Source: Candidatus Hydrogenedens sp.
GTDB lineage: Bacteria > Hydrogenedentota > Hydrogenedentia > Hydrogenedentales > Hydrogenedentaceae
Length of the DNA: 64,000 bases
NCBI GenBank assembly: GCA_049968235.1
Contig: JBMFRC010000011.1
Span: 35,251 to 99,250, forward strand
Reading direction: 5' to 3'
The position numbers and the translations under genes are program-made. This document shows positions 12,874 to 39,441 of the stretch, one piece after another. The notes beneath the pieces were generated by a model, which ran no database searches, was not told where the DNA came from, and saw only the letters and a list, made by a program, of their open reading frames with translations. The number at the start of each line of letters is the position of its first letter. Within the stretch, counting starts at the first letter, position 1.

Positions 12874-13332
12874 ATGGAAAATAAAAGGGATACATTACCC
12901 TCAGGGGATTCTTTTCTTTATTTATTCAAATTGTCCATGAGAATTCTTGCCTTTGCCTATTTTTTAGGTGCCTTGTTTTTTTTCTTCATACCGGATGGTG
13001 TCAATTATATCCTCAATTTTCTTCCTATCTTTTTGAAAGTACTACAACCTTTACCTGAAAAAAATACCGATTATTTTTGGTTACCTCTGGTGGGTTCCCT
13101 TATGCTGGTATTGACCTATATTGCTTATCAATCATCCAAAGACCCACAAAATAAAATTCTCCTAAATGTTCACATCTTATCAAAATTTATCTCATCAGCA
13201 GGCTATCTCTTTCTATTTTTATCTGATAAACTTATTTTTGGATATTTAGTGGGTTGTGTATTGGATTTTGCTATTTGTATTTATGTTTTTTATCTAAAAA
13301 TGAAAATCCATCGATTAAATAGTTCTTTGTAA
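12874..13332 (+). CDS. small integral membrane protein (3-4 TM), function unknown
   Basis: Hydrophobic helices throughout; AAAGGAAG RBS; first gene of a tightly spaced four-gene plus-strand operon. Confidence 0.4.
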   Translation: MENKRDTLPSGDSFLYLFKLSMRILAFAYFLGALFFFFIPDGVNYILNFLPIFLKVLQPLPEKNTDYFWLPLVGSLMLVLTYIAYQSSKDPQNKILLNVHILSKFISSAGYLFLFLSDKLIFGYLVGCVLDFAICIYVFYLKMKIHRLNSSL

Positions 13333-13339
13333 TATCATT

Positions 13340-14374
13340 ATGAGATTCCCTTACCGAATAACAAATGAATCCTTTTTACTTCCTTATTACAAGAATAATG
13401 CTTATGAAGTTTGGTATTGGAAACTGAATCCTGTTGAGCAAGACTGGTCGTTTTGGTTTCGTTTCACATTATTAAAAAATGCTACAAAAAATGTAGCGGA
13501 AATATGGGGGATTTTTTCAAAAAAAGAAATTCAAGAAGGTAATTCAAAAGCATTAAATATAGCCATAAAGGAAACCTTTCCTATAGAAGAATGTTATTCT
13601 TCATCAGATAATAGCATCACTTTACATGATAATTATGTAAATTTTCATTCCTGTCATGGACAAATAAAGGGGAACAATGAACAACTTGTTTGGGATTTAA
13701 GTCTTATGCCTGTAGAGCCACAGGAATCTTATAATTTTGTTCCCTTTCTATTGTGGGAAACAGGAATTGTAAAAAACTATGCAGTAACAATTCATGAAAA
13801 AATTCTTTTTAATGGAACTATTCGGGCAAATCAGGAAACCTTGCAGGTAAATAATGCTTTGGGAATGCAAGGACATCTTGCTGGATTAAAACAAGGACAC
13901 TCATGGGCGTGGGCTCATAGTTGTATTTTTGTTGATGAGGATAATGGAGAATCTGTTCCTATAATCATTGATATTTTAACAGCCCGTGCTCGGATTGGAG
14001 GAATAATAGTCTCACCACCACTTACAACATTATATCTGTATTATGAAGGGAAATCTTACCCATTAAACTCTATACAATATACAACAAAGAATAAATCAAA
14101 ATATATTCCTTTATTCTGGGAATTCAGCACATCTACAGATAACATTCAACTTTATGCTTCAATTGAAGCAGATATATCAACGGTTGTTGGAGTAAAATAT
14201 GAAGATACAGATAGTAGTGAATTATATTGTTATAACACCAAAATGGCGACTATGAAACTCATTATTTATGATAAAGAAGTTAATAAGAAACGGAAATTTA
14301 TCAGTCTCAATAAGTGTGCCTTTGAATGGGTGCAACGAGAACTCTGGGAAAAAGTTCCTATTTCAATTTGGTAA
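13340..14374 (+). CDS. conserved hypothetical protein, Trp-rich, possibly a lipocalin-like lipid-modifying enzyme
   Basis: Starts 7 nt after the previous gene. Contains WYWKL, WSFWFRF and GHSWAWAHS Trp-rich motifs. No family confidently recognised. Confidence 0.45.
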   Translation: MRFPYRITNESFLLPYYKNNAYEVWYWKLNPVEQDWSFWFRFTLLKNATKNVAEIWGIFSKKEIQEGNSKALNIAIKETFPIEECYSSSDNSITLHDNYVNFHSCHGQIKGNNEQLVWDLSLMPVEPQESYNFVPFLLWETGIVKNYAVTIHEKILFNGTIRANQETLQVNNALGMQGHLAGLKQGHSWAWAHSCIFVDEDNGESVPIIIDILTARARIGGIIVSPPLTTLYLYYEGKSYPLNSIQYTTKNKSKYIPLFWEFSTSTDNIQLYASIEADISTVVGVKYEDTDSSELYCYNTKMATMKLIIYDKEVNKKRKFISLNKCAFEWVQRELWEKVPISIW

Positions 14375-14382
14375 AGAATATT

Positions 14383-14811
14383 ATGCAATCATTTATTAAA
14401 AAAAATAGTTATGCTATTTTAACCACATTACTTAATGACGATTCTTATTGGATTGAAAATGTTTCAATGGATGCATTCTGGGTAGAATTTAAAAAGACTC
14501 TGGATTCTTTACCTAAATTAAATCGTCTGGGTCTTGTATTTGCTTTCATTTTGATTTCGATAATCCCTCCTCCCTATTCTTTTTTTTCCCTTATGTATAA
14601 TTCACAGTTCCCCCTAAGAAAAAAGTGGCTCGAGTCGTGGGAACAATCAAAATGGTTATGGAGAAAATCGTTGTTTTTAGGAATACGCATTTTAATTATC
14701 GGGAGTGCACTTCAACTTCCTCAAACAATGATACATACGAATTATCAGGAATTATTATCAGAAAGAGAAAAGCATTCTTGTTTAAAGATAAGACAGATAA
14801 CCGATGAATGA
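14383..14811 (+). CDS. small membrane protein, function unknown
   Basis: Internal ATG (Met20 of the track ORF) directly after the upstream stop; one or two TM helices; its stop overlaps the start of the GMC oxidoreductase (ATGAATGA), suggesting translational coupling. Confidence 0.4.
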   Translation: MQSFIKKNSYAILTTLLNDDSYWIENVSMDAFWVEFKKTLDSLPKLNRLGLVFAFILISIIPPPYSFFSLMYNSQFPLRKKWLESWEQSKWLWRKSLFLGIRILIIGSALQLPQTMIHTNYQELLSEREKHSCLKIRQITDE

Positions 14812-16348
14812 GTATTTATTTGATATTTATAATCGTCCTAATGTGGTTAATTTAGTTACAGATGAAACCTCAAATTTAACGAACTCCATTTTTGACTTTA
14901 TTGTTATTGGCAGTGGAGCAGGTGGAGCGGTCCTTTCAAAAGAACTTACAGAACAAGGAGCCAAAGTAGCACTTATTGAAGAAGGTTCCATTCCCTTTCC
15001 ATGGGCGACATCTGCTTTTCGCTCTTTACTTAAACTTTATAGAGATAATGGATTTACAGGTACTATTGGAAAGCCCATGATACCCATTCCTCTGGGTCGC
15101 TGTGTGGGGGGAACCACAGTTATTAATTCGGGGACCTGTTTTCGTGTTCCACAAAAGGTATTAAATTTGTGGGAGTCGGAATTTGGTCTGGCAGAAGTAA
15201 CTAATGAAAATTTACAGGACTGTTTTACGAAAGTAGAAAGGGAGATACATGTTGAGGATGCGGACTGGAATGTAATGAATAAATCTAGCGACTTTATACG
15301 AAAGATATTTACCCGGAGAAATTTACCCTGTCTCCCCTTGCGACGGAACACATACAATTGTCAGGGATGTGGTATGTGCTGTTATGGTTGCACATCAGGT
15401 GCCAAAAAAAGTATGGAAATTTCATACATTCCTAAATCTATCCAGGCAGGATTGTTTTTATTCTATAATGCACGGGCAAAACGCATCCTTTTATCCGATA
15501 GGAAAACAGGAAAAGGTGTTTTAGTTGATGTGGTTCATCCAACAACACACAAGGTAATCAAGGAGATTGAGATAAAGGGAGAAAAAATAATAGTTGCGTG
15601 TGGGACAATGTTATCTCCTCTATTACTGAAAAGGAGTGGTATTGCTATTGACAATCCTAACTTAGGAGCACATTTGACAATACATCCTGCAAGTAAAATA
15701 TCTATTGAACTCGAAGGAGATGTTTCGTCGTGGGTAGGAATACCTCAGGGATGCTATAGCACAGCACTCGAAGATGAAGGGATTATTTTTGAAGGTGTAT
15801 CAATGCCTCCTGATTTAGGTCCTTCTGCCGTTCCTTTTTCAGGTAGTGAATTAATTCATTATTGGAAGAACTATAAAAATATCGCAACTTTTGGTTTTAT
15901 GATAAAAGATAGCAATGAAGGTTCATTGAGTTTTAATATAAAAAACCAACCCATCTATTCTTACCAATTAACAAATACAGATGTCCAAAAGTTAAAAAGA
16001 GCCATCACTTTTCTGGCGGAGTTGGCTCTGGAAGAGAATCCCATTCAGATTTTTGCTATGGTAACAAAACAACCCAATATAATAAAGAATAGAGATGATT
16101 TGAATATATTTATAAAACAAGAACATGCACCATCCGATTTTGAATGTATGGCATTTCATCCCTTAGGGACCTGCCGATTATCTGAAACACCTGAAAAGGG
16201 GGTCTGTGATTCCAATCATCGGGTATTTGGCATGAACAATATTTTTGTATGTGATGGAAGTTCAATTCCTACCTCACTTGGAGTGAACCCTCAATTAACC
16301 ATTATGGCATTAGCAACACGCTTAGCCCAGATACTTAAAACCTTTTAA
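14804..16348 (+). CDS. GMC-family FAD-dependent oxidoreductase with Cys-rich insert
   Basis: N-terminal FAD motif FDFIVIGSGAGGAVLSKEL...ALIEEG. Cys cluster CQGCGMCCYGCTSGAKKS (the GC-x-x-GAK block common in GMC enzymes; extra cysteines suggest a possible Fe-S site). C-terminal GMC substrate-binding domain with HPLGTCR. Confidence 0.8.
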   Translation: MNEYLFDIYNRPNVVNLVTDETSNLTNSIFDFIVIGSGAGGAVLSKELTEQGAKVALIEEGSIPFPWATSAFRSLLKLYRDNGFTGTIGKPMIPIPLGRCVGGTTVINSGTCFRVPQKVLNLWESEFGLAEVTNENLQDCFTKVEREIHVEDADWNVMNKSSDFIRKIFTRRNLPCLPLRRNTYNCQGCGMCCYGCTSGAKKSMEISYIPKSIQAGLFLFYNARAKRILLSDRKTGKGVLVDVVHPTTHKVIKEIEIKGEKIIVACGTMLSPLLLKRSGIAIDNPNLGAHLTIHPASKISIELEGDVSSWVGIPQGCYSTALEDEGIIFEGVSMPPDLGPSAVPFSGSELIHYWKNYKNIATFGFMIKDSNEGSLSFNIKNQPIYSYQLTNTDVQKLKRAITFLAELALEENPIQIFAMVTKQPNIIKNRDDLNIFIKQEHAPSDFECMAFHPLGTCRLSETPEKGVCDSNHRVFGMNNIFVCDGSSIPTSLGVNPQLTIMALATRLAQILKTF

Positions 16349-16358
16349 TTATTTTCAA

Positions 16359-19055
16359 CTAGTTCGGATGAAGCGTAAAGGAATCAATCCAGATATTTAC
16401 ATTATTAAGGGTACATGGGTCAATACGAATTGCCTTAATTTTTCCGTTCCAATTAGGATGGTCCCGTAAATTAAAGGTATAGGTATAATAACCTCCATCT
16501 ACACGAATAGGTATTGTAATGGAGTTTTCCTCATTGAATTGTAACCCTTTTGATGACCAATATAACTGTGCTTTATTTTCCATTGGTGCTGGATTTTCTA
16601 CACGCAATCGTAAAGTGGCTCTTGGAAATTGATTTGCATTAATACCTTTTGTACCATAGTAAAAGAAATAAATAGATGGGTCATCTGTATTCGTTCTACC
16701 TGTAAGACTTCCTTCCTCTACTTTTATATCATTCATACCTCTGAATACCTTCCATCCTGATAATGATTCATGGAAGTCCCATGATGTCTCAAAAGCAGGG
16801 ACAGGAAAGTCATACGGTCCCAATCCTATGTCATCGGGAGAAATATTAACAGGCAATGGTTGTGTATTGGATGAGACAAAAACATTGCGAATGGCTTCAT
16901 ACATTGTAAATCCAAATTCTGTATTAGGCTCGATATAACTACCTTCTCCCCATTCGTTTAATGGGCCTAAAATAATTATTGGTATTTTTTTCTCTTCCGC
17001 AAAATCACGAGCGGACAATAACATTGTCTTGAACAGTTCTGAAGTCCTTCCCTCAATAACCAATGCCTTGGAACCATGCCAGGGACGCGAATCCCAACCT
17101 GTTTCTACAATGGGATAATAAGTCATTCCTTCACATAAAGCGCTTTTCTCCATCCAAACAGTTGGTATTGTAGAAACAACATCTTCATATTTAGCACGGT
17201 TAGGGATTTGGCTCATATAAACTGCTTTATAAAATTCATGGTAATTTGTAAACGATGAATAACCTTCGTTTTTTAATGTTTGCAACTCAGAGGCAGATTG
17301 ATTGTTGTTTATCGCCATAAATTCAATACCTTCGTAGCCTGCTTCTTTAGCCCATTGCTGGGATTTTTCTAACAATGCCTTTACTGCTTCGGAACTACCT
17401 AAATCATGGCGAATATTCTCCGGGGACCAGATGCACACAAGTGGTTTATTATTAACCCTATAATAAGATGGTAAATTAAAATAGTTATCTATCCATTCTC
17501 TATTTACCTTTTCCCAGTCTTCGGCAGAGTGGGTATTGGGAGGATTATGGTTTGCCCACATAATTGCTACTTTCAAATAATCTCTATACTTTGCTTTGCG
17601 ATAGGCTTCGAACCAATGAGTTAAGGATTGTTTTCCCGCAACCCAATACCAATCAACAAGGAAACATTTAATTCCATTCTCTACAGCCCATTTAATCTGC
17701 CAATCCACACACTCCGGATTTCCTTCATTATAATAACCCAAAATAGGTTTTCTTATGGGAGCTGTTGTTTGAATACAATCCCATTTTTCGAGAGTATCCC
17801 AACCTGGGAAATAAAACGCACATATATCTATTTTAGTTTTAATTGGTTTCGGTTCAGGGACATATTCTGCGGATATTTTTCTAATTTCAGGTAATACCTG
17901 TAATTCTCCGGTATTGATAGTTAATACAGTTCCTTTGGATAAAGGTATAACCTCTATGGGATAGATGCCTGATTTTTCTGGAGTAACTTTCCAGTAAACA
18001 TCTATGAAATCATCATATTCAATTTCATACGGAGGCTCGGGAATGGGTCCTTTTTCTATTCTTAAAGAACCCGGATGATTAAATTTTAGATTATCAATAC
18101 GGGCAACACTACCTCCCTGATTGGAAAGTCGTAATAAAACAGGGACTTCTCTACCCGCTCGTATACCACCTTGAGCAGAACCGAAATAAGAGACTACGAC
18201 TTCAGGTTTGTTCAGTGGTTCTTCCCCAATAGACAGAGAATTTATTTTTATATTTGAACCATCGTGAATATAAAATCCTAAGGCAAGAATGGGTTCTTTC
18301 CATGTAGAATATTGAGACATGTCAATAACACTAACATGCATTTTGTTATCAGTAACCAATGGTAGAGAAATCGTTTGAGGTCCTAAAATATCCTGACTTG
18401 CCCAAATAAAATCTATTGAATTAGCACTTTTACTTGCAGAATACTCAATTGAAAGATATTTTCTCTTTCCAATAAGCAATGATATAGGTTTAAAGAAATA
18501 ATAGGGGCTATTTTCTGAATCAATTTTCCATGAGGAGATATCCCCTTCGGGGAATTGCCACTCGTAAACATCTGTAACAGGGGGTTCCCCTTTATCCCAT
18601 GTTTTTACAGAAATTTTCTCTAATTCAAATTCCAGAGCATCACACAAATCCAATCGTATTTTAATAATTTTCCCCTCTTTATGCCAGAATGGAAAAACAT
18701 AAATATCCTGCCAATCATTCTTTTCTTCAAAACTAAAATTGACAGATTTATCTCCCGATAGCCCTCCGTATTGTCCTTCATTTGTTCCGGACCAAAATAT
18801 CTGCCCCATACCTCCATGGTTTGTTTTCATACGAATATGTATGTATTGATAGGGAGTTGGAACAAATTCAATTCCTTTGCATAAAAGAAAAGGGTCTGTA
18901 CCTTGTGTTCTACCCTGCAATTTTCCACCTTCTATTTTTACATCCTGTATCTGTCCATTCGGAACCCATTTCTGTAATACTTCGGGATTATCAAATGTCC
19001 ATTCAGGAAGTTGACAATTTAGGAAATATAGGATAACTAAGGAAGTTAATAACAT
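16359..19055 (-). CDS. secreted multidomain protein with WbsX-like (GH99-related) glycoside-hydrolase-like TIM-barrel domain
   Basis: Signal-peptide-like N-terminus; N-terminal beta-sandwich region. Central block AFYFPGW...LGYYNEGNPECVDWQIKWAVENGIKCFLVDWYWVAGK...WANHN matches the pattern I recall for the Glyco_tran_WbsX family (AFYLPQFH...LGYYdl.dpev...GIdgFcyYhYWF...WANEnW). Confidence 0.5.
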   Translation of the reverse strand: MLLTSLVILYFLNCQLPEWTFDNPEVLQKWVPNGQIQDVKIEGGKLQGRTQGTDPFLLCKGIEFVPTPYQYIHIRMKTNHGGMGQIFWSGTNEGQYGGLSGDKSVNFSFEEKNDWQDIYVFPFWHKEGKIIKIRLDLCDALEFELEKISVKTWDKGEPPVTDVYEWQFPEGDISSWKIDSENSPYYFFKPISLLIGKRKYLSIEYSASKSANSIDFIWASQDILGPQTISLPLVTDNKMHVSVIDMSQYSTWKEPILALGFYIHDGSNIKINSLSIGEEPLNKPEVVVSYFGSAQGGIRAGREVPVLLRLSNQGGSVARIDNLKFNHPGSLRIEKGPIPEPPYEIEYDDFIDVYWKVTPEKSGIYPIEVIPLSKGTVLTINTGELQVLPEIRKISAEYVPEPKPIKTKIDICAFYFPGWDTLEKWDCIQTTAPIRKPILGYYNEGNPECVDWQIKWAVENGIKCFLVDWYWVAGKQSLTHWFEAYRKAKYRDYLKVAIMWANHNPPNTHSAEDWEKVNREWIDNYFNLPSYYRVNNKPLVCIWSPENIRHDLGSSEAVKALLEKSQQWAKEAGYEGIEFMAINNNQSASELQTLKNEGYSSFTNYHEFYKAVYMSQIPNRAKYEDVVSTIPTVWMEKSALCEGMTYYPIVETGWDSRPWHGSKALVIEGRTSELFKTMLLSARDFAEEKKIPIIILGPLNEWGEGSYIEPNTEFGFTMYEAIRNVFVSSNTQPLPVNISPDDIGLGPYDFPVPAFETSWDFHESLSGWKVFRGMNDIKVEEGSLTGRTNTDDPSIYFFYYGTKGINANQFPRATLRLRVENPAPMENKAQLYWSSKGLQFNEENSITIPIRVDGGYYTYTFNLRDHPNWNGKIKAIRIDPCTLNNVNIWIDSFTLHPN

Positions 19056-19133
19056 ACAATTATTCCACTCCTATAAAATGAAGGGATTGTTAAATAGATT
19101 CGCAAATAAAAGATAAAATTGGGTAAATTATAT

Positions 19134-19178
19134 CATAAAAGAATATACCCGCCGAAATTATCAAATCTCGGCGGGTAT
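19134..19178 (-). terminator. rho-independent terminator after the 1122-aa surface protein gene
   Basis: 11-bp perfect inverted repeat ATACCCGCCGA / TCGGCGGGTAT with a T-rich tract on the minus strand. Confidence 0.5.
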
Positions 19179-19205
19179 AAAACTATGTGTGAAGATTTCT
19201 AACTC

Positions 19206-22200
19206 TTACTTAAGCCCACCACAATAACCATCCTCTTCTTCAGGACATATTCTGTAACCACCCATGTTAAAGAACTGTATTAACCGCAATAATTCATTAA
19301 GGCCAATACGCCAATCTTGTGGAGCATAATCGCTGGTATGCGGTGGACAATTGTGGAATGAATCATTTCTTCCAGGGGCATATCCATCTTCTGTCGAACC
19401 TTCACAATGATACCCAAAGGAGTTAAATAGTTGAATAACGCGAAGTAGTTCTCCTATTTCAAATTTCCAATTAAAGTTTCTATCCGCAGAATGTATTCCA
19501 TGTGGGATTTCTCCTTCTGGCGTGCCTTCCGCAACACCTTCGGGTATGCCCTCTGGTGTCCCTTCTACAATACCTTCTGGCTGTCCCTCGGGTATGCCTT
19601 CTGGCGTGCCTTCCACAACACCTTCGGGTATGCCCTCTGGGGTTCCTTCAACGATACCTTCCGGTGTCCCTTCTACAACACCTTCTGGCTGTCCCTCGAG
19701 GACACCTTCGGCTGTACCTTCTAAGACACCTTCCGGTGTCCCTTCCGCAACGCCTTCGGGTTGTCCTTCCGGTATCCCTTCTGCAACACCTTCCGGTTGT
19801 CCTTCGGGTGTGCCTTCAACGACGCCTTCTGGGGTACCTTCTACGATACCCTCCGGTTGTCCTTCGGGTATGCCTTCGGGAGAGCCTTCTACTGTTCCTT
19901 CACCTTCAGGAGAAGGTAAGAAATCGGAGCAGTCAAGAACGCCATTATCATTCTTATCTGCAACATCAAACTGGTCTTGTGTAATTTTTGAACTCAAAGC
20001 ACGCACTTCCGTTAGAGTTAATTCATTATCACCATTCGAATCGAGTTTGGGTAGCAAATTAAATATGGAACTTACTGCTGTAAATTCTTCAAAAGTTAAT
20101 TGATTATCCCTGTTCTTATCTACCAGATACCATACGCCAGCAATAATTATATCACTCCAACCTGTCAGGGATTTAAATTCGCTTTTTGATAACAAACCAT
20201 CGCCATTGGTATCTCCAAATAGGAGCATAATCAGGAAATAATGTTCAATATCATCAATATCACAGGTAGGAGGTTCCCCTTCTATAACACCTTCCGGGAT
20301 GCCTTCAGGAGTACCCTCAACTATACCTTCACCTTCAGGTATACCTTCAGGAATACCCTCTTGTGTCCCCTCTGGTGTACCTTCCGGGGTGCCTTCCGGG
20401 GTGCCTTCAGGTGTTCCCTCTGGTGTGCCTTCCGGGGTACCTTCAACTACACCTTCGCCTTCAGGCAATACAAAGTCATTGCAATCAAGAACACCGTTTT
20501 GATTTAAATCCACTGCATTTAACTGGTCCATAGTTATATTGGAATTCAGGTTTTGCAATTCTATAAGCGTAAGGGCACCATCGTTATTTCCATCTAATCC
20601 TGGCAACAGGTTATACAACCACTCCACCTTAGAGAACTCTTCAAGAGATAACTGATTATCTCCATTCGTATCAACGGCACTCCATAATAATAGGACAGTA
20701 TCACTCCAACCTGTAATGGCTTTAAGTTCTTCTTTAGATAATAATCCATTCCCATCTGTGTCGCCGAACATAATCAAGATATAGTAGTAATGTGTAATAT
20801 CATCAATATCACAGGGTGGTTCACCTTCAAAAGTCCCCGGACAAGGTGGACAACCACCACCGTTCAGGGTCTGATTAATATCCAGTGCAGAAAGAATAAA
20901 GGTATCTATATCCGTAGGTGCAAATACATAGGCTTTATACTCACCTATATTACAGACTTCATCAAAATCCGGGTCACCGGCGGAAGCAAGGTATTGTCCT
21001 GCGGTTAAATCATATCCGTTTAATGTGAATGTGCCCCAGAACATTAATGTATCAATCACATTCACAATAGAATTGATAAACGATTGTTCACCTGTAGTAA
21101 GGACCCCAGCAACAACATTGATAAATGTTGTGTTCGAGAAAATCGTGCTTAATAATGGAATAGAATCCCATTTGCTTTGAGCCACAACACGATTATTCAT
21201 ATATGCGTTTTTCACACAGCAGAAAATAGGCAATTCCGGATGTGCAAGAATATAATCTAACAATCTTGCCTGTGCAACATCATACATACCATTACCATCT
21301 ATATCCGCTGTATCGGGATTTACGCTAAGGAAAGAAGCAATGCCATATAAACTGCGTAATGCTGTTTCAAACCCCGCATTTACTGCAGTTTGATTGCAGT
21401 TATCCCAGCACCATTCAGCATAACAAGATTCTGGAAGTGGACCCATAATATCGATGCAGTCGAGATAGCCATTGCCATCAATATCATGTTGATTAAATTG
21501 GTCTTGTGTAATTTTGGAACTCAATTGCCTTATTTCAGTTAAAGTTACCTGATTGTCGCCATTCGAATCGAGGTTTGCAGGTAAAAGTCCACCCAAACGA
21601 TTGCTGGCTACAAATTCGTCAAAGGACATAAAACCATCACCGTTTTTATCAATTATCCACCATCCTAAATCTAAAAGGAACCCTGTTACAAAGGCTTTTA
21701 ATTCATTTTTTGTTAACTTACCATCACCATTTGTATCACCAAACATTATTAACAATGCGAAATAGTTTTCATCAGAACGCATATTACAGGGAGGTGGACC
21801 TCCACCTTCGCCTTCACCTTCAACGGTTCCTTCTGCCCCACATGCGGGACAACCACCATAATAATCTGTAATACTACTATTAATAGCCGCATTCACAAAT
21901 GCATCAAAGTCCGCAGGTGTGTTCACAACCCATGCTTTGTATTCACCAATATTGCAGACACCGTCCAAATCCGCATCACCTTTGGCATTCAGATAAACAA
22001 TATTTGAGCCATCCAATTCTAATAAGGAAAGGTCGGGTAAGTTAGGAATTATCCAATTCAACGCTGATAGAATAGTATTAATAATTGCTGTGTTCCCCAT
22101 TGTTGCCAGTGCTGCGAAGAAGGTTTTCATACCTTCAAGGTCTGGTGGCGTTCCTAAATAGGATGGCCAGCCTGTCTGTATGGCAAGTGCTAACGCTTCC

Positions 22201-22574
22201 ACTTTCAAACGATTGCCTGCATACGCCCAATATATACAATTACGAGTGGGTATCCCACCAATTAATGAAAAACTTCCCATAATTGTATCGAATAAACGTG
22301 CCTGGGCAGTATCTTTCATTCCATCAAAATCTAAATCAAGATTATCTGGATTTCCTCCAATTAATGGGATTTTCGCATATAATTCCCGCATTGAATTTTC
22401 AAAACTTTCAGTATATACAGGACCGGGTATTAAATTATTGCAATTAGGAATATTGCAATAATCCACTTCTGCATCTGTTTGTGCAACTGATGAAGAAGAA
22501 AAAACAAAACATACACTCATGATAAGGAACAAAGTTCCTATGTATATTTTGCTTGTATTAATCTTAATGTTCAT
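19206..22574 (-). CDS. giant secreted/cell-surface protein: three EF-hand/dockerin-like Ca-binding modules, Pro/Glu/Gly (EG-x-PEG) tandem linkers, duplicated Cys-containing C-terminal motif
   Basis: Signal peptide MNIKINTSKIYIGTLFLIMSVCFVFSSSSVA. Three paralogous modules, each with FGDTNGDG(K/L)L(T/S)K.E(L/F)K, D.NGDNQ(L/V)(T/S)L.E and D.N.NGVLDC loops (D-x-D/N-x-DG). Two long runs of (P/V/I)EG-x-PEG repeats. C-terminus carries two copies of ...(I/L)GELLR(V/L)IQ(L/F)FN..GY..C. Confidence 0.7.
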   Translation of the reverse strand: MNIKINTSKIYIGTLFLIMSVCFVFSSSSVAQTDAEVDYCNIPNCNNLIPGPVYTESFENSMRELYAKIPLIGGNPDNLDLDFDGMKDTAQARLFDTIMGSFSLIGGIPTRNCIYWAYAGNRLKVEALALAIQTGWPSYLGTPPDLEGMKTFFAALATMGNTAIINTILSALNWIIPNLPDLSLLELDGSNIVYLNAKGDADLDGVCNIGEYKAWVVNTPADFDAFVNAAINSSITDYYGGCPACGAEGTVEGEGEGGGPPPCNMRSDENYFALLIMFGDTNGDGKLTKNELKAFVTGFLLDLGWWIIDKNGDGFMSFDEFVASNRLGGLLPANLDSNGDNQVTLTEIRQLSSKITQDQFNQHDIDGNGYLDCIDIMGPLPESCYAEWCWDNCNQTAVNAGFETALRSLYGIASFLSVNPDTADIDGNGMYDVAQARLLDYILAHPELPIFCCVKNAYMNNRVVAQSKWDSIPLLSTIFSNTTFINVVAGVLTTGEQSFINSIVNVIDTLMFWGTFTLNGYDLTAGQYLASAGDPDFDEVCNIGEYKAYVFAPTDIDTFILSALDINQTLNGGGCPPCPGTFEGEPPCDIDDITHYYYILIMFGDTDGNGLLSKEELKAITGWSDTVLLLWSAVDTNGDNQLSLEEFSKVEWLYNLLPGLDGNNDGALTLIELQNLNSNITMDQLNAVDLNQNGVLDCNDFVLPEGEGVVEGTPEGTPEGTPEGTPEGTPEGTPEGTQEGIPEGIPEGEGIVEGTPEGIPEGVIEGEPPTCDIDDIEHYFLIMLLFGDTNGDGLLSKSEFKSLTGWSDIIIAGVWYLVDKNRDNQLTFEEFTAVSSIFNLLPKLDSNGDNELTLTEVRALSSKITQDQFDVADKNDNGVLDCSDFLPSPEGEGTVEGSPEGIPEGQPEGIVEGTPEGVVEGTPEGQPEGVAEGIPEGQPEGVAEGTPEGVLEGTAEGVLEGQPEGVVEGTPEGIVEGTPEGIPEGVVEGTPEGIPEGQPEGIVEGTPEGIPEGVAEGTPEGEIPHGIHSADRNFNWKFEIGELLRVIQLFNSFGYHCEGSTEDGYAPGRNDSFHNCPPHTSDYAPQDWRIGLNELLRLIQFFNMGGYRICPEEEDGYCGGLK
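19495..19925 (-). repeat. coding tandem repeat: about 18-nt units encoding (T/I/Q)PEG-x-(V/A/L)EG linker
   Basis: Periodic ccttc(t/g)gg... DNA. Generates multiple spurious antisense ORFs in the track (19491..19724, 19502..19984, 19522..20103). Confidence 0.7.
20280..20470 (-). repeat. coding tandem repeat encoding EGTPEG x6 and related units
   Basis: Protein segment PEGEGVVEGTPEGTPEGTPEGTPEGTPEGTPEGTQEGIPEGIPEGEGIVEGTPEG. The antisense ORFs 20241..20507 and 20299..20502 are repeat artefacts. Confidence 0.7.
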
Positions 22575-22664
22575 TGTGTAACTCCTTATTCTTAATTATT
22601 TTTTATAATTAATTCTACCTGAAAAGTTTATCTTATGTAAAAAAATCTTAATAATGGGGGGTAT

Positions 22665-23123
22665 CTAACAAAGAAGAGGGAGGAAAGGTATTTTTGAAGA
22701 AATCTTCATTTCTACATCTTTTGAAAGTGAGTAATATTGCTTTGTGATATTTTCCTCTTTATTTTGACAAAAATTTGTCTCAATTAAATTATTATGATTA
22801 GTTAAATTTTTCAATAAAAGCGAAGTTTTTTCTGTTCTTAATATAGAACTAAATAAAATCATGTTTTTTAATGTTCTGGGTGTGGGAACTTTTGTTTTTT
22901 CATTCTTAATTTTTTGAACAATCAGACACAAATCACGAACATCAATTGTAGAATCCCCGTTCATATCTTTTATTTCTGCAGTAAGTGAGGAGTTCGCTTG
23001 ATTTAATATAGAAGTTAAGACACTTTGCCATAATATAACATTCAGATTTTGAAATGTGCTTATCATCATTAGGGGATATAAAAATAGTCCCAAAACTGTA
23101 AAAACACAAACAAACTTTTTCAT
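22665..23123 (-). CDS. small secreted protein with a single dockerin/EF-hand-like Ca-binding loop
   Basis: Start chosen at Met14 (MKKFVCVFTVLGLFLYPLMMIS, a signal-peptide-like N-terminus). Motif DMNGDSTIDVRDLCLIVQKI resembles a dockerin half-repeat. Lies immediately upstream of the giant protein on the same strand with no terminator between them. Confidence 0.4.
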   Translation of the reverse strand: MKKFVCVFTVLGLFLYPLMMISTFQNLNVILWQSVLTSILNQANSSLTAEIKDMNGDSTIDVRDLCLIVQKIKNEKTKVPTPRTLKNMILFSSILRTEKTSLLLKNLTNHNNLIETNFCQNKEENITKQYYSLSKDVEMKISSKIPFLPLLC

Positions 23124-23260
23124 TTCAAAACTCCTCATATATATATTATAACATATAAACACATAAAATAAATATCAAATTTGATGTTTTTTTTGTTAAA
23201 ATATTTTTGGAGTTTTTTATTTATTTTTTAAGAAGTATTTTTAATTATGGGATTTTGAGA

Positions 23261-29672: not shown

Positions 29673-29758
29673 ATACCAAATTTTCATGCTTATGATCTTT
29701 TTATGTTAAAATATATTTGGTATTATTTTATCTAATACATAAAGCAAGGATATTTTGG

Positions 29759-32700
29759 ATGAAAGATTTATCTCTAATTTATAAGATGATAGGTAAAAAA
29801 AATTCGTATTCTTTTCTTTTTTCATTATTAATTTTTTTCTTTTTATTTATTTGTTCGGGATTTTCAGAAGTAAATACGGGGCAAAAAACCGTAGAAAAAC
29901 AGGGGATATTAAACATTACTCAAAGTCTCTCACAAAATCCGGATTGTGCTATAGATTCTTTTCTTGATGTAACTGTTGAGTTAACATACACAGGAGAAGA
30001 CCCCCTACTCACATTAGGTCTAAGGGAAATAGTGCCAGAAGGACTTGTTTACGAAGAGATTATAAGTGGTTCCGCACCTCCACTCCAACCTTCAAGAGGG
30101 GCTTTTGGAACCTTAGAATTTGGTTGGATTTTTGTTCCCTCTTTTCCAGCCTCTTTTACGTTTCGTTTAAGATTTGCACAACCTATTAGTGGTAATCAAT
30201 TTATTACAGGAATTGGTATTTTTGCATCATTTGGAGACCCTCAGGAAACTGAACCTGTCATTTCCTACTTTGACTGTCCAACTATTGAAGGTCAAACCGA
30301 AGGAGAAGGGATAGTCGAAGGTGAGGGGCAAATTGAAGGAGAGGGAATAATCGAAGGAGAAGGGAGCATAGAAACAGTATATTTAAATATATCATCAAAA
30401 TCAGGAGATATATATGCTCCCGAACAAGAAATGGAATTTGAAGTTAATATTTCGTATTTAAATCCTCTGGAAATCACTGCCTTAGGAGCAACGGTATTTT
30501 TGCCTGAGTATTGGCAATTTGTTAAATTTACTGCGGGTTCTCCTCCGCCTATTTATTATTTCGATACGGAAACAGGGAAAGCAGAATTTGCATGGATATT
30601 TCTTCCATCTGGAGGAATTACTTTTTCCTTTTCTGTCCTTGTTTCGCCTGAAACAGAGGGTATTCAGGAAATATCCGGTTATGGGATATATAGAACAACG
30701 GGAGAACCAATCACCACAACTATTTCGAAAATATATTTAACACCTGTCCCCAAACCAGACCTTACTTTGCTTTCGGGAATAGTTACACCGTCAAACCCTT
30801 TTTCCCAGGGGATTATATCAATTAACTACACGGCAAAGAATACAGGTTTTGTAAATATTGACAACAAAAGTTGGAGTGATTGTTTTTACTTATCTAATGA
30901 TGAATGGCTTGATGAAACAGATGTTGAAATAACCTGTATCACCAATAATACTTCTGTTGCGGTTGGCGGACAATATTCAAATTCATTAAAAGCAAAATTA
31001 CCTTCTTCTGCATTTGGAAATATGTATCTTCTTGCTTACCTAAATAAGACAAAGACTATTTATGAAGAATCAAGGGACAATAATGTTGGGGTTATAGGAA
31101 TTATTCAAATACAAGCCAGAGAATATGATTTTCGACTAACTACAGGTATAACAGAAGAGGATGTAGGCACACCTATTCCTATCAAAATATATGCGTATAA
31201 TCCTGAAACCCTACAACCTGCTGTAAATAAACAAATCGTTTTGCAAATTGCTCATCGAGGATTCTCAAAAACTTACACTTTCACTACTGACCAGAATGGG
31301 GAAATAAATTATACATATTTCCCTATATCCAACACAGAAGGAGGGATATATAGCATATCTATCAGAGACCCAAGGGAAGAAGATTATCCTATTACTGAAG
31401 AAGTCTTATTGCGAGGACTTGCGATAACCCCCTCCCACTATTTTCTTGAGGTTATACCTAACAAAACATATACCATTCCCTTTAATATTATCAATTTAGG
31501 GGATACGGAAGAAAAGCAATTATCATTCATGATAACAGGAATACCTCCTGATTGGAATTATGATTATGTTATTCCTTCCTCAATACAGGGACAATCTAAA
31601 GAAACTTGTAAACTTATCCTTTATTCCAAGCCAACAACACAGAATAGCTTCCCTATAATGCTTAATTTACAAAGTAATTCAAAAACTCTTGCAACCGCTC
31701 AATATGATATTCTACCCAAACCCTATCAAACGGTAATAACATCTATTCCTGAAGAGGTTTCTTTACCTTTACTTCTCGAGAAAACTCAGTTTTATACGAT
31801 AGAACTAAAAAATCAAGGAGGAAAAGATTCAGGACCCGCTCGAATACAAATCGAACCTGAAAACCCGAATATTCATTTAGTTACTCCAAACACAGTTTAC
31901 AATATTCCAGCAGGTTCAAGTTATTTCGTTTCATTACAGGTAGGAATCCCATTTATAGAAATTCCAGAACCTATAGAGACATCCCTATCTATTCGTTTTG
32001 AATCGGGATTAAATGTGAGCATTCCTATAAAAGTTATTGAGGATACGACAAAAAGTTTAACAATAAATGTATTTAACAAATATACGAATGAAGCTATCCA
32101 TAATGCTTCCGTTTCTATCGTTAGTGAAACAGGTATTCTTTCTACTTCTCAAATCAATAATGATGGAATAGTTGAAGTTAATAATCTACCTGAACCTCCT
32201 TTTTCTATTGTAATACTAAGTGAGGGATTTGAAAGCCAGACCTATTTTATATCAAATTTAAAGAGCAATCACGAAATGATTGATATTTATTTAGAACCGT
32301 TCTTATCTAAACAATTCTGGTCTTACACAATCGATAATAATCAGAAGCTATATCTACTATCAGTATCCAATAGTTCTGCTCTTGAACCAGACAACACTTC
32401 TGTATTAACAATATCGCCAGGTTATATTCCTTTTATTACAACAGAAATATCTCATAATTCTACACTTTCCATTACCAATCAAGGGATTAAACCTTTATAT
32501 GATGTTTATTTATATCCATTCCAAACTGACTTATTAAATATACAGTATCCTGTTCAATACTTAGGAACAATAGAACCGCAATCTTCTGTTAATATTCCTG
32601 TCCTTTCACAGATATCAGAATCATTTGATTTTGATTCCTCGTGTTCTTCATCGATCTTGACGGGTATCATTTTTTCGGAACAAACTAACAATTCGGATAT

Positions 32701-35700
32701 ATCCCAATTTATGGTAATGCCTTTATGGAATACAGAAGTTTTATGTCCGGATTTTACTCCTATCTATGGGGATTTTTATCAAATAAATAGAATAAATCCT
32801 GATACAACCATTGTTCCAGTAAACATTCAAATATCCCTGCCAGATAATCAATCCAATCAAAATGTACCTATTCTTTCCTACGCAACCGGGCAAATGACCT
32901 TAGCCACAGGAGAAATTCTACCCATTGTAATGAAAACTGCTACTCGGACAGGGCTTTATGAGCAAATAGATATTCAATGGCAAATTCATAATGCGGAAAA
33001 CAATGAGGATATAACTTCTCTATTCCAGATATTTGAATTATCTAATTTTGAGAAAACAGATTTGTTTAATAATATAGAGAAAAAACAATGGTTACTTTAT
33101 CCCTTGCATGAATTTTGGGAAAACCCGATATCGGAAATTCGATTATTCGCACAAATTCATATTATTTCATTACTGGGGACATGGGATATATCCTCTCCCC
33201 CGCTACCTTTGAAGATTCTTTCACAACCTATACTTATGGAACATATATTTGCTCCTCAAATTCACGAATTGCAAATTTCTTCCAGTGCGGATAACTCAGG
33301 AGAAACGGTTCTACCTTTAGCGATTCTTATTTCTCCAACAGATAATATTAATCTCCCTATAAAATTTGAATGGGAGAATATTCAATATTTACATGAAACA
33401 GGAAATATTGCTTCCTTATCCTTAATCCAAACGGCAATAAATGGAATAGGAACGCAATATCAACAAATCACATATAACAACATTTCTTTGCAGAAAGAAA
33501 AAACCAACTCTTATTTGTGGTACTTTTTATCTCCACCTCTTTCAAATAAATGGCAGTTAGTTTCTCGATGGACTTACAAAGACAATAAGGGTACTCTTTT
33601 ACCCCTTATTACCAGGGAACAATATCATGATTTACTGCATACTATTGAAGTTACAGGAGAAAATGCTTCAATAACAACTGGATTACTTAGTAATGATGAT
33701 AATGATGAACAGAGAATACCTGATATTATCTATTTGCCGGATGGAAAAACCTTAAGTATATCTACACCCTCCAATCCTATCTGGGTGTCTATAAATAATT
33801 CCCACAGAGAATATGGTATTGTCTATAGTTCTTCACAACAGTCTGATTATGTTTATTTGCATTCCAATTTTCCGGAGGATGTTCCTGAAGATGCCGTTAT
33901 CCTCCGTATCCTTAGAAGCGATTCAACTGTTATTCCATCTGCCAATTATTGGGTTAGTAAATCTATGAATATGAGTCATAAACATGACCCTGTAAAACCT
34001 TCCTTACATTTTGTTGATAAATCGGGCTACAACTCATATATTGTGGAATTTCAATCCGAATCGTTAGAGAATAAGCCTCCTATCGCTAATGCAGGAGAGG
34101 ACATAACAAATGTATATCGTCCCTCATCTATAACTCTTGACGGGTCTGGGTCCTATGACCCGAATGGAGACCGAATTAATTATTCATGGCGTCTTATCAG
34201 CAAACCTCTTGAGAGTTTTGAATATCTAAGAAACGCAGATACAGCAAATCCCATTTTAATTCCAGACCTTCCCGGAACTTATATTGCACAACTTATTGTT
34301 TCTGATGGTTTTGCTCAAAGTGAACCCGATACGGTTGTTATTGAAGTTGTTAATCGTTTACCGGAGATTGTAATTAATGCTCAACAAAAAGCAAGACCTC
34401 GCGATATCGTTGTCTTAGATGCATCATCCGTAGTAGACCCTGATGGAGATGAAATAGAATTTTTATGGAAACTGGCAACCAAACCCGATGGTAGTCGTGT
34501 ATCACTACAGGGAGTTTTTAATAATACAATAACAATTACACCGGATGTATTGGGTCAATATGAATTTATCTTATACATATCAGATGGCTTTGACAACTCA
34601 TTTGCCCATTGGAAATTAGATGTTTACAACCATCTCCCTGAAATTGCAATCGGGTTTCCACCGACTGTTTATTTAAATACAAATGTATCTATTTCTGCAC
34701 GGGATACTTTTGATATTGACAACGACCCATTATCTTATCAATGGAGATTGGTTTCTGCACCGGTGGGAAGCAATACAATACTTAGTTCTTTTACTCAGCC
34801 CGAAACCAGTTTTGTATCCGATAAAAGAGGCACTTATACATTAAAACTTGAAGTTTTTGATACTTATGAAAAAACAGACAAGACAATTTCTTTACAATGT
34901 GTTAATAGGAAACCTCAAACAATTGTAAATCCCAGTGCTATTGAAGTTCCACATGGTAAAACGGTTATTTTCGATGCTACGCAAAGTTCAGATTTAGATA
35001 ATGACCCACTCACTTTTAATTGGGGACTTCTTTCCCGTCCTATATTAAGTAGTGCGGAAATTTATTTAATTCAAAACAATATAGCTGGGTTAAAAACAGA
35101 CGCACCTGGAAAATATAGTGTAACCTTACAAATAAACGATGGATTTGAATCGGGTGAGATAGTAATATCTCAAATCACAGCAACCAATAATCCTCCAGAG
35201 ATACAATGTCCGGAACAACCTATTCCAGGTTCAGTAGGACAACCTTTAACAATACTATTACCCGAAATAAATGACCCGGAACAGGACCCTATCACATATT
35301 CATGGGAAATTATTTCAAAACCAGTAGAAAGTATGATAGGTCTCATTAACTCTGTAGAGCCTGCATTTACATTCACACCTGACCGTAAAGGAACTTATGA
35401 AATTCAAGTTATAATATCCGACGCATGGGGAGGTAATACATCTTGTGTTATTACAACAGAAATTACCAATCAACGCCCTGTGGCGGTAATTCAATCCGAG
35501 ACGCAGAGTTTTATAAATACTCCTGTATCTCTATCAGCAGAAAGTAGTTATGACCCGGATGGGGATGTTATAAAAGATTATCAATGGACAATTATCAGCA
35601 AACCACAGGGAAGTTTTGCTCAATTGTCCAACCCTACAGGTGTTACAACACAACTGATTCCTGACAAACACGGCAATTATCAGGTGCAACTTCAAATTTA

Positions 35701-38640: not shown

Positions 38641-39441
38641 ATGGGAACATTATCCTGTCCTTTCTGCAAAACAAAACAAGGTAATATTCAAAACGACATT
38701 AAAGCCTCGATTTACTTAAAGGCGGTATTACCAACTCTTGTTGACCTCGTTCAGTTAGATAAACCTGCAAAAGATTTAATTAACTCTGTAAACGAGAAGA
38801 TACTCTTTTCGCTCCGAAATGGAGAAAAAACCTTTTTGAGGATTGAAAATGGAGAGATTTTATATTCTCCTGAAAAAAAGGATAATCCAACTATCCATAT
38901 TCTTCTTATAAGCCCGGAACATGCGGTTCAAGTTTTTGAACAAGGGAAACTTCCTTTCTTATTAAAAGGTTTTACACGAATTTCTTTTCTTAAGAAAAAT
39001 TTTGATGCTCTTACCAAACGATTGGAGTATTACTTAAAAGGTCCCCAAAGTTATACAGAAGAAGAGAAAAAAATATATGCGATACTTCAACTTAAAACCG
39101 CTCTTCGTTCTGCGGAAGTTCTTGCCGAAAAAGAGGAAGTATCTAAAAAGATACTTGCAGGTACACCTGAGGGCATATTAAAAGTAGCCATAGAAAGCAT
39201 TGATTTTGCTGTATATTTTGGGAAAGTAGACGGGAAATGGAGATATATAGACCAACTATCGGGACAGAAATTTAATTCGGTATTAAGCTTAAAGGACCTT
39301 GAAACAACAGAACTTTTGCTTACAAACAAACTGGATACATTTGCAGGTTTAGGATTAGGGAAAATTCATATTTCCGGCATTATACCCATTATTGATAATG
39401 TAGGACTGGTTTTAGGGCGTATTACTCAATATATTTCTTAA
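38641..39441 (+). CDS. hypothetical protein with two SCP2-like (sterol-carrier/lipid-binding-like) halves; paralog of 42628..43407
   Basis: Segments ...GKLPFLLKGFTRISF and ...LLLTNKLDTFAGLGLGKIHISG resemble the SCP2 C-terminal helix pattern (gkl.p..af..GklkieGd). Collinear similarity to the ORF at 42628 (AVLP(T/V)...ARNGE...GKL.LP.IKGF). Confidence 0.4.
   Translation: MGTLSCPFCKTKQGNIQNDIKASIYLKAVLPTLVDLVQLDKPAKDLINSVNEKILFSLRNGEKTFLRIENGEILYSPEKKDNPTIHILLISPEHAVQVFEQGKLPFLLKGFTRISFLKKNFDALTKRLEYYLKGPQSYTEEEKKIYAILQLKTALRSAEVLAEKEEVSKKILAGTPEGILKVAIESIDFAVYFGKVDGKWRYIDQLSGQKFNSVLSLKDLETTELLLTNKLDTFAGLGLGKIHISGIIPIIDNVGLVLGRITQYIS

Follow-up and report, generated by a model that had tools for sequence, protein, structure and literature searches.

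A secreted protein with twelve EF-hand loops and a lineage-specific dockerin-like C-terminal module, paired with a small dockerin-type gene, in Candidatus Hydrogenedens

The subject of this work is a pair of adjacent genes in a stretch of 64,000 nucleotides from Candidatus Hydrogenedens sp. (assembly GCA_049968235.1, contig JBMFRC010000011.1, positions 35,251 to 99,250 of the forward strand), the whole of which is called here the window and is numbered from its first nucleotide. The larger gene encodes a multi-modular, predicted calcium-binding protein of 1122 amino acids, for which the working name BIG is used, and the smaller one lies 90 bases upstream of it on the same strand. An earlier note on this DNA had described the pair as a possible dockerin-type surface assembly without cohesin. 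The layout of BIG was derived from a reading of the translation and from a self-comparison with hidden Markov models (HMM), and the features of the locus, in the order of transcription, are the following (ORF, open reading frame; EG, Glu-Gly-rich).

22665..23123, minus strand: small gene, 152 amino acids from ATG (starting with MKKF), or 165 amino acids from a GTG at 23162
22887..22967, minus strand: Dockerin_1-like loop plus helix of the small protein, residues 53-79, DMNGDSTIDVRDLCLIVQKI
19206..22574, minus strand: BIG gene, ORF of 1122 amino acids starting with ATG, stop codon at 19206-19208
22482..22574, minus strand: predicted signal peptide of BIG, residues 1-31, MNIKINTSKIYIGTLFLIMSVCFVFSSSSVA with cleavage before Q, read by eye from the sequence
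21834..22478, minus strand: N-domain copy A, residues 33-247, predicted all-alpha, unannotated, extracellular
21435..21791, minus strand: EF-hand module 1, residues 262-380, loops at 280, 309, 336 and 364, flanking Cys263 and Cys373
20835..21434, minus strand: N-domain copy B, residues 381-580, 38% identical to copy A
20469..20819, minus strand: EF-hand module 2, residues 586-702, loops at 605, 635, 661 and 689, Cys588 and Cys698
20274..20468, minus strand: EG linker 1, acidic (T/I/V)(P/V)EG tandem, residues 703-767, 65 amino acids
19917..20273, minus strand: EF-hand module 3, residues 768-886, loops at 788, 819, 845 and 873, Cys771 and Cys882
19509..19916, minus strand: EG linker 2, acidic xPEG/xVEG tandem, residues 887-1022, 136 amino acids
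19209..19505, minus strand: C-terminal duplicated module (C-module), residues 1024-1122, 99 amino acids, lineage-specific, dockerin-like putative anchor
19144..19179, minus strand: terminator-like hairpin with a 16-bp stem followed by a T-run, 27 nt past the BIG stop codon, by consensus match only

In order from the N-terminus, BIG consists of the signal peptide, two successive units of N-domain plus four-EF-hand module, EG linker 1, EF-hand module 3, EG linker 2 and the C-module, an architecture that can be considered established. Residues 1-31, with a basic n-region, a hydrophobic core and the cleavage motif SVA-Q, have the appearance of a Sec-type signal peptide, and the description of BIG as a secreted protein of 1122 residues is upheld. 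The two EG linkers (about 27% Glu and 26% Gly) are also present, and Tandem Repeats Finder detected them at the DNA level as arrays at 19512-19890 and 20331-20456, but they do not simply alternate with the three modules as had been proposed: modules 1 and 2 are separated by N-domain copy B with no linker, linker 1 lies between modules 2 and 3, and linker 2 between module 3 and the C-module. Two ORFs on the opposite strand, 19502..19984 (plus, 160 amino acids) and 19522..20103 (plus, 193 amino acids), face the linker repeats and encode PSG/LP-rich repeats; they were considered artefacts because of the repeat composition of the EG linker, and comparable antisense ORFs recur opposite module-bearing genes at related loci.

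Concerning the three EF-hand modules, each of them contains four canonical 12-residue loops, twelve in total, and not three per module as counted in the earlier note. The loops have D at position 1, D or N at positions 3 and 5, a hydrophobic residue at position 8 and E or D at position 12. The modules are 47–58% identical to one another, in agreement with their description as paralogous, and each has one Cys ahead of the first helix and another inside the fourth loop, between which a clamp disulfide probably closes the module. In Pfam, BIG matched EF-hand_1, _5, _6, _7 and _8 with E values from 8e-15 to 2e-29 and bit scores of 55–99 (99.3 for EF-hand_1, 82.7 for EF-hand_7), above the gathering scores, and the assignment of the internal modules to the EF-hand families PF00036, PF13499, PF13202 and PF13405 is supported by both the HMM matches and the canonical loops. 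The structure comparison of a predicted module gave EF-hand proteins as fold neighbours. On the other hand, Dockerin_1 (PF00404, gathering score 22.9 bits) was absent at E ≤ 1 across the 1122 residues of BIG, and the two antiparallel F-hand helices of dockerins were not found. The view of these modules as dockerins was rejected by Pfam and by fold alike, a generic EF-hand fold being the outcome that the earlier note itself had named beforehand as adverse to its proposal. Thrombospondin type-3 repeats were likewise rejected, as neither TSP_3 nor TSP3_bac was listed by Pfam for BIG at E ≤ 1.

Judging from their sequences and predicted fold, the EF-hand modules of BIG are ordinary calmodulin-type four-EF-hand units that together would offer 12 canonical Ca2+ sites. 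Their closest known counterparts are the calmodulin-type four-EF-hand proteins and the disulfide-stabilised extracellular EF-hand pair of SPARC/BM-40. The distance from loop start to loop start, 27–31 residues, is tighter than the approximately 36 residues of calmodulin, and, in contrast to calmodulin and to SPARC/BM-40, BIG repeats the module three times in a 1122-residue secreted bacterial protein and has it fused to an unannotated helical domain.

The C-module is made of two copies of a unit containing an H-x-A/S-D Ca-type loop, an amphipathic helix ELLR(V/L)IQ(F/L)FN and a Cys-bearing beta-hairpin GGYxC...EDGYxPG, with four conserved Cys. Its two halves, of 45 amino acids each, were aligned by hhalign with a probability of 99.8% and E = 1.8e-28, which corresponds to a tandem duplication. 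A homologue search gave 43 family members with E values from 3e-15 to 6e-33, and all the named ones carried the label Hydrogenedens or Hydrogenedentes. Their alignment, with invariant Cys, Asp and Glu columns, yielded the consensus H-x-A-D-x-N/D-x-D/N-x-x-I-x-L-x-ELLRVIQFFN-x-GG-x-HC-x3-TEDGYAPG-...-C-x-PH-x-SDY-x-PQDW-x-I-x-L-x-ELLRLIQFFN-x-GGY-x2-C-x3-EDGYCPG, where loop 1 follows the family pattern D-x-N/D-x-D/N-G-x-I-x-L-x-E. The AlphaFold2 model of the module (predicted local distance difference test score, pLDDT, 90.3) shows in each half a loop, a helix of 12–13 residues and a beta-hairpin.

No Pfam family covers the C-module, whose members match only generic EF-hand models through loop 1. 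The copy of the window gave no Dockerin_1 match at E ≤ 10, let alone one reaching the gathering score, and weak Dockerin_1 matches occurred in 6 of the 43 family members (best E, 0.001). Foldseek against the PDB returned nothing significant for the model, and its closest structural neighbours, weak as they were, were dockerins. Since a Ca loop followed by a helix, in tandem, is the dockerin-type arrangement and is found in the C-module, the latter may be described from its model as dockerin-like in organisation, with dockerins as the nearest known fold; membership of the dockerin family is not claimed.

The use of the C-module across genomes was studied with a scan of one genome per GTDB species, which gave 517 pattern matches, 478 of them confirmed by tblastn; the locus-level figures given here rest on the best 79 loci (designated by L numbers), from about 20 assemblies, out of the 478 confirmed copies. 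These loci, with G+C contents from 36 to 65%, are labelled mostly as Hydrogenedentota, several as "uncultured Nitrospirales" and two as Patescibacteria or Buchananbacteria. They contain 109 module-bearing ORFs, of which one metagenome-assembled genome (MAG) contributes at least 34 and a second one at least 22. For about 95 of these ORFs no more than 10 residues separate the C-module from the C-terminus; EG linkers usually precede it, and tandem arrays of the genes are frequent. Pfam analysis of 41 full-length carriers showed as cargo InlB B-repeats (Flg_new_2, 14 carriers), PASTA (14), leucine-rich repeats (LRR, 11) and EF-hands (5), besides Ig-like, GLUG, alpha-2-macroglobulin, PKD, FG-GAP and FGE-sulfatase domains. 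Throughout Hydrogenedentota, the C-module recurs on secreted adhesin-like proteins that are otherwise unrelated, dozens of them in a genome. This multi-copy, linker-preceded and mostly C-terminal placement on diverse surface proteins resembles the use of dockerins, and type I dockerin modules (PF00404), cellulosomal and non-cellulosomal, are among the closest known systems.

Other positions were also observed. The C-module comes right after the signal peptide at L007, L009, L015, L021 and L063, is internal in the 5343-residue ORF of L032, and occurs alone in small secreted proteins. In three of the N-terminal copies (L007, minus strand, 16061..17317; L009, minus strand, 17443..18306; L021, minus strand, 18832..19722) the last Cys pair of the second repeat, C-x7-C, is replaced (e.g., YHIEEDTEDGYAP and YRTDPAEEDGFAP), which suggests that the terminal disulfide is peculiar to copies at the C-terminus. 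Module-bearing genes often follow one another head to tail: at L008 (1..11332), L070 (4246..13832), L010, L018, L020, L029, L044 and L046, two or three large genes are arrayed in this way, all with a C-module at their end, and local expansion of the gene family seems likely. With respect to taxonomic labels, MAGs deposited as "uncultured Nitrospirales bacterium" (L004–L006, L008, L010, L012 and others; contig prefixes CAYXPO01, CAYYRW01, CAZZMK01 and CAZJTZ01) carry dozens of Hydrogenedentota-type modules plus EG linkers, and in such MAGs (L037 and L080) the pair of BIG and small dockerin-type gene is also present; the "uncultured Nitrospirales" labels of these module-bearing MAGs look doubtful. 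Module matches on contigs labelled Patescibacteria group or Candidatus Buchananbacteria correspond to L063 and L069.

Concerning the small gene, the earlier note correctly placed it on the same strand as BIG and credited its product with a signal peptide and a single dockerin-like loop; the N-terminus is hydrophobic and the one loop is DMNGDSTIDVRD, the length being 152 residues and not 150. The protein has a degenerate first dockerin repeat, an intact second one and a tail of about 70 residues ending in a conserved Cys; in the alignment with its relatives it retains both helices and has lost the first Ca loop. Its score against Dockerin_1, 15.5–15.8 bits, is below the gathering score and covers only the first half of the model, i.e., one repeat. 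The corresponding protein at L037, encoded upstream of a BIG that is 44% identical and in a context of 56% G+C, has 165 residues and two intact repeats, and it exceeds the threshold with 28.8 bits over model positions 2-51. The small ORF is kept open in relatives, with 76% identity at L001 (Candidatus Hydrogenedens terephthalaticus), 49% at L002 and a recognisable version at L039, and the ratio of non-synonymous to synonymous substitution rates (dN/dS) is 0.22–0.41; the gene is under purifying selection. The family comprises 13 clusters of 132–165 residues plus one partial sequence of 106, three of them carrying a precomputed PF00404 match.

The small gene stood directly before the BIG homologue in all seven loci examined (the window, L001, L002, L037, L039, L080 and L081). 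What precedes the pair varies, with rpoN there in the Hydrogenedens loci but murB in L080, i.e., at least two different contexts. Proteins having the N-domain without EF-hand modules have no such small gene upstream. The pairing of the small gene with BIG despite differing flanks supports a functional relationship, and the sequences support the view of the small protein as a conserved, selected, dockerin-derived partner of BIG, to which it may bind. The dockerin theme of the earlier note does not hold for the EF-hand modules; it survives in the small gene, whose two-repeat relatives pass the Dockerin_1 threshold, and in the C-module, on evidence that the note had not used.

The N-domain is about 200 residues long and has conserved Cys pairs; two loops of Ca type, DLDFDGMKDTAQ and DADLDGVCNIGE, lie within it. 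Its AlphaFold2 model is all-helical, with pLDDT mostly above 85, and had no convincing neighbour in the PDB. The domain is without Pfam match, and a word-indexed homologue search with the N-terminus of BIG gave as sole match a partial self-match, a Candidatus Hydrogenedens sp. protein. When 1.84 billion representatives were searched exhaustively with a profile, 60 proteins were collected, 39 of them below 1e-10. The N-domain co-occurs with EG linkers and, in about 30 of 55 proteins, also with the C-terminal module; it is further combined with extracellular modules of the Ig, CHRD, Calx-beta, TIG and P-domain types. As other hosts of the domain are extracellular Ig, CHRD, Calx-beta and TIG proteins, its occurrence suggests a role in extracellular binding rather than in catalysis. 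Three N-domain proteins (P0052, P0053 and P0055) do not have the C-module at their end, which is formed by an EG linker, an Ig-like region, a hydrophobic helix and basic residues (LLVILLLTLLLGYTRRYKKG); these ends look like an alternative C-terminal anchor, PEP-CTERM-like or transmembrane, for the same cargo.

The genomic surroundings of the pair had been taken for an accessory cell-envelope or adhesion island. The neighbours are rpoN (divergent), H+-pyrophosphatase, RNase III, ClpB, a WbsX/GH99-like protein, a GMC oxidoreductase, an alginate-export-type outer-membrane protein, dehydrogenases and transketolase, in a window with 31–41% G+C throughout. Between the outer-membrane protein and rpoN, the genes keep their order in L001, L002 and L039; at L003, where the contig ends inside BIG, this is visible only as far as BIG, starting from the outer-membrane protein. 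BIG itself is 91% identical at L001, 87% at L002, 71% at L039 and 44% at L037, and at L039 its 71% compares with 58–64% for the enzyme neighbours, i.e., BIG is at least as conserved as the adjacent enzyme genes. The island was rejected on account of the housekeeping neighbours and of the gene order conserved with related Hydrogenedens MAGs; together with the conservation of BIG, this means that the region is a vertically inherited chromosome segment.

Some other genes of the window deserve mention. Just downstream of BIG, a gene for 898 residues (16359..19055, minus strand) encodes a central WbsX/GH99-like domain with unannotated flanks of about 400 (N-terminal) and 170 (C-terminal) residues, and adjoins BIG in all the Hydrogenedens relatives with 58–87% identity. 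A 2619-residue secreted protein (29717..37576, plus strand), with CARDB, carboxypeptidase-regulatory-like domains, about ten K319L-like/PKD/Big_9 repeats and a Cys-rich C-terminus, had been assigned to the same surface-protein family as BIG. This assignment was not sustained: what both proteins have in common is a stretch of some 30 residues rich in EGE (residues about 190-217), and the 2619-residue protein is without EF-hand modules, N-domain and C-module. Four conserved ORFs on the plus strand, 12874..13332, 13340..14374, 14326..14811 and 38641..39441, had no Pfam match at E ≤ 1e-5 (E ≤ 1e-3 for 13340..14374), and the first three are syntenic in L001, L002, L003 and L039, with 41–88% identity.

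Taking the above results together, the interpretation that we consider somewhat better than an even bet is that BIG is exported by the Sec route, stays tethered at the cell surface and binds many calcium ions, with the lineage-specific, dockerin-like C-module as its anchor and the small protein as its partner. The C-module would be a Ca-stabilised attachment module acting like a dockerin or like another cell-surface anchor; the long acidic linker would be a spacer, and the C-module would bind a receptor located either on a scaffold or on the cell envelope. As for the small protein, either exported or membrane-anchored, it would be a dedicated dockerin-type adaptor or anchor binding BIG, whose N-domains or calmodulin-like modules might provide the contact.

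Several observations weigh against this interpretation. The C-module shows no significant profile similarity to Pfam Dockerin_1; compared with PDB sequences, its profile found only a generic EF loop plus helix at E > 0.2; and hhalign related it to the small-protein family with a probability of 6%, which is why homology between the C-module and the dockerin of the small protein is not claimed. Calcium binding by the C-module is only putative because loop 1 has in the window copy a Trp at the usual place of Gly (DRNFNWKFEIGE) and loop 2 is degenerate in the whole family. As the earlier note had already remarked, no cohesin-like partner is seen: Pfam Cohesin was not found among the 32 window ORFs scanned, which were the two genes of the pair and 30 of the other ORFs of at least 150 amino acids, all of them within the first 41.6 kb. 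Nor did the 1086 ORFs of the 79 loci, when clustered all against all, give any recurrent family of non-module neighbours that could be a candidate receptor; the clusters comprised only GFO/IDH/MocA oxidoreductases, a glycoside hydrolase of the conserved Hydrogenedens neighbourhood and antisense artefacts of repeat genes. A promoter-like site in the gap that separates the two genes scored no better than shuffled sequence, so their co-transcription can only be called possible. Besides, we infer that BIG is present on the cell surface, that the disulfides form and that the small protein interacts with BIG.

A broader version of the preferred interpretation, which we put forward only tentatively, is that the C-module and its receptor could form a phylum-wide, Ca-dependent surface-display system, analogous to cohesin–dockerin but built with a different module and loaded with adhesin-like cargo, where BIG, with its two N-domains and three calmodulin-like units, would act together with the small dockerin-type protein as a scaffold or adaptor.

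Among the rival explanations, the one that survives best, unlikely as we consider it, is that the C-module is a lineage-specific secretion or sorting signal comparable to the C-terminal domain (CTD) of the type IX secretion system (T9SS) or to PEP-CTERM, maybe removed after recognition by an export or attachment machine. Its many copies per genome, its restriction to one phylum, its mostly extreme C-terminal position in large signal-peptide proteins with diverse cargo and the lack of a receptor in the clustering of the 79 loci agree with that idea, and so does the likeness to T9SS CTD, PEP-CTERM and LPXTG, which are also short conserved C-terminal elements on many large secreted proteins of one phylum. 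However, the C-module has neither a transmembrane helix nor a sortase-type motif, and it is predicted to be a folded, disulfide-bearing domain of alpha/beta type with Ca loops and weak similarity to dockerins, not a beta-sandwich. Neither a strict C-terminal position nor a match to a curated model, as expected for C-terminal sorting domains, was found, since no NCBIfam sorting-domain model matches and N-terminal, internal and stand-alone copies exist, in contrast to sorting domains. With such freedom of position, a binding or anchoring role is more plausible than that of an obligate tag for sorting at the C-terminus.

It seems improbable as well that BIG is a soluble extracellular or periplasmic buffer or store of high capacity for cations (Ca2+ and possibly other metals), in which the C-module would be a stabilising Ca/disulfide cap and the small gene would be unlinked. 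The twelve loops are those expected of calcium sites, but the C-module is also present on LRR, Ig, PKD and macroglobulin proteins without a metal-buffering role, and the pairing of the small gene with BIG outlasts changes in the flanking genes. The known candidates for comparison were rejected too: BIG scored 31.3 bits with lanmodulin (NCBIfam NF053806) and 57 bits with XopAW (NF041410), far below the respective cut-offs of 135 and 120 bits, its architecture and size are unrelated to theirs, and its loops are without the Pro at position 2 that lanmodulin loops typically have. Finally, it is very improbable that the internal EF-hand modules are themselves dockerin-type and form with the small protein a cohesin-less surface assembly, as, even if their loops fit the D-x-D/N-x-D/N-G consensus shared by EF-hands and dockerins and BIG is secreted and linker-rich, that is contradicted by their generic EF-hand fold.

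The phylum Hydrogenedentota consists of uncultured bacteria that are frequent in anaerobic digesters and in sediments, and to our knowledge little is known about their cell surface. The searchable literature contained nothing relevant on dockerins, EF-hands or calcium binding in Hydrogenedentes, nor on the motifs of the module. The EF-hand modules are ordinary and nothing new; the C-module, the N-domain and the pair formed by the dockerin-type gene and the EF-hand protein are undescribed in Pfam, NCBIfam, the PDB and the searchable literature. A duplicated Ca-loop module of about 99 residues, with hundreds of copies in public genomes, marks a large share of the secreted adhesin-like proteins of the phylum; a family of helical extracellular domains of about 200 residues co-occurs with it; and a small dockerin-type gene pairs with a protein of twelve EF-hands. 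If the C-module is a stabilising cap or a sorting tag, this would be a useful domain annotation and otherwise ordinary. If it is an anchor, it would provide a simple sequence tag to predict the surface proteome of Hydrogenedentota, and would add a new pair for Ca-dependent docking that could be studied or engineered.

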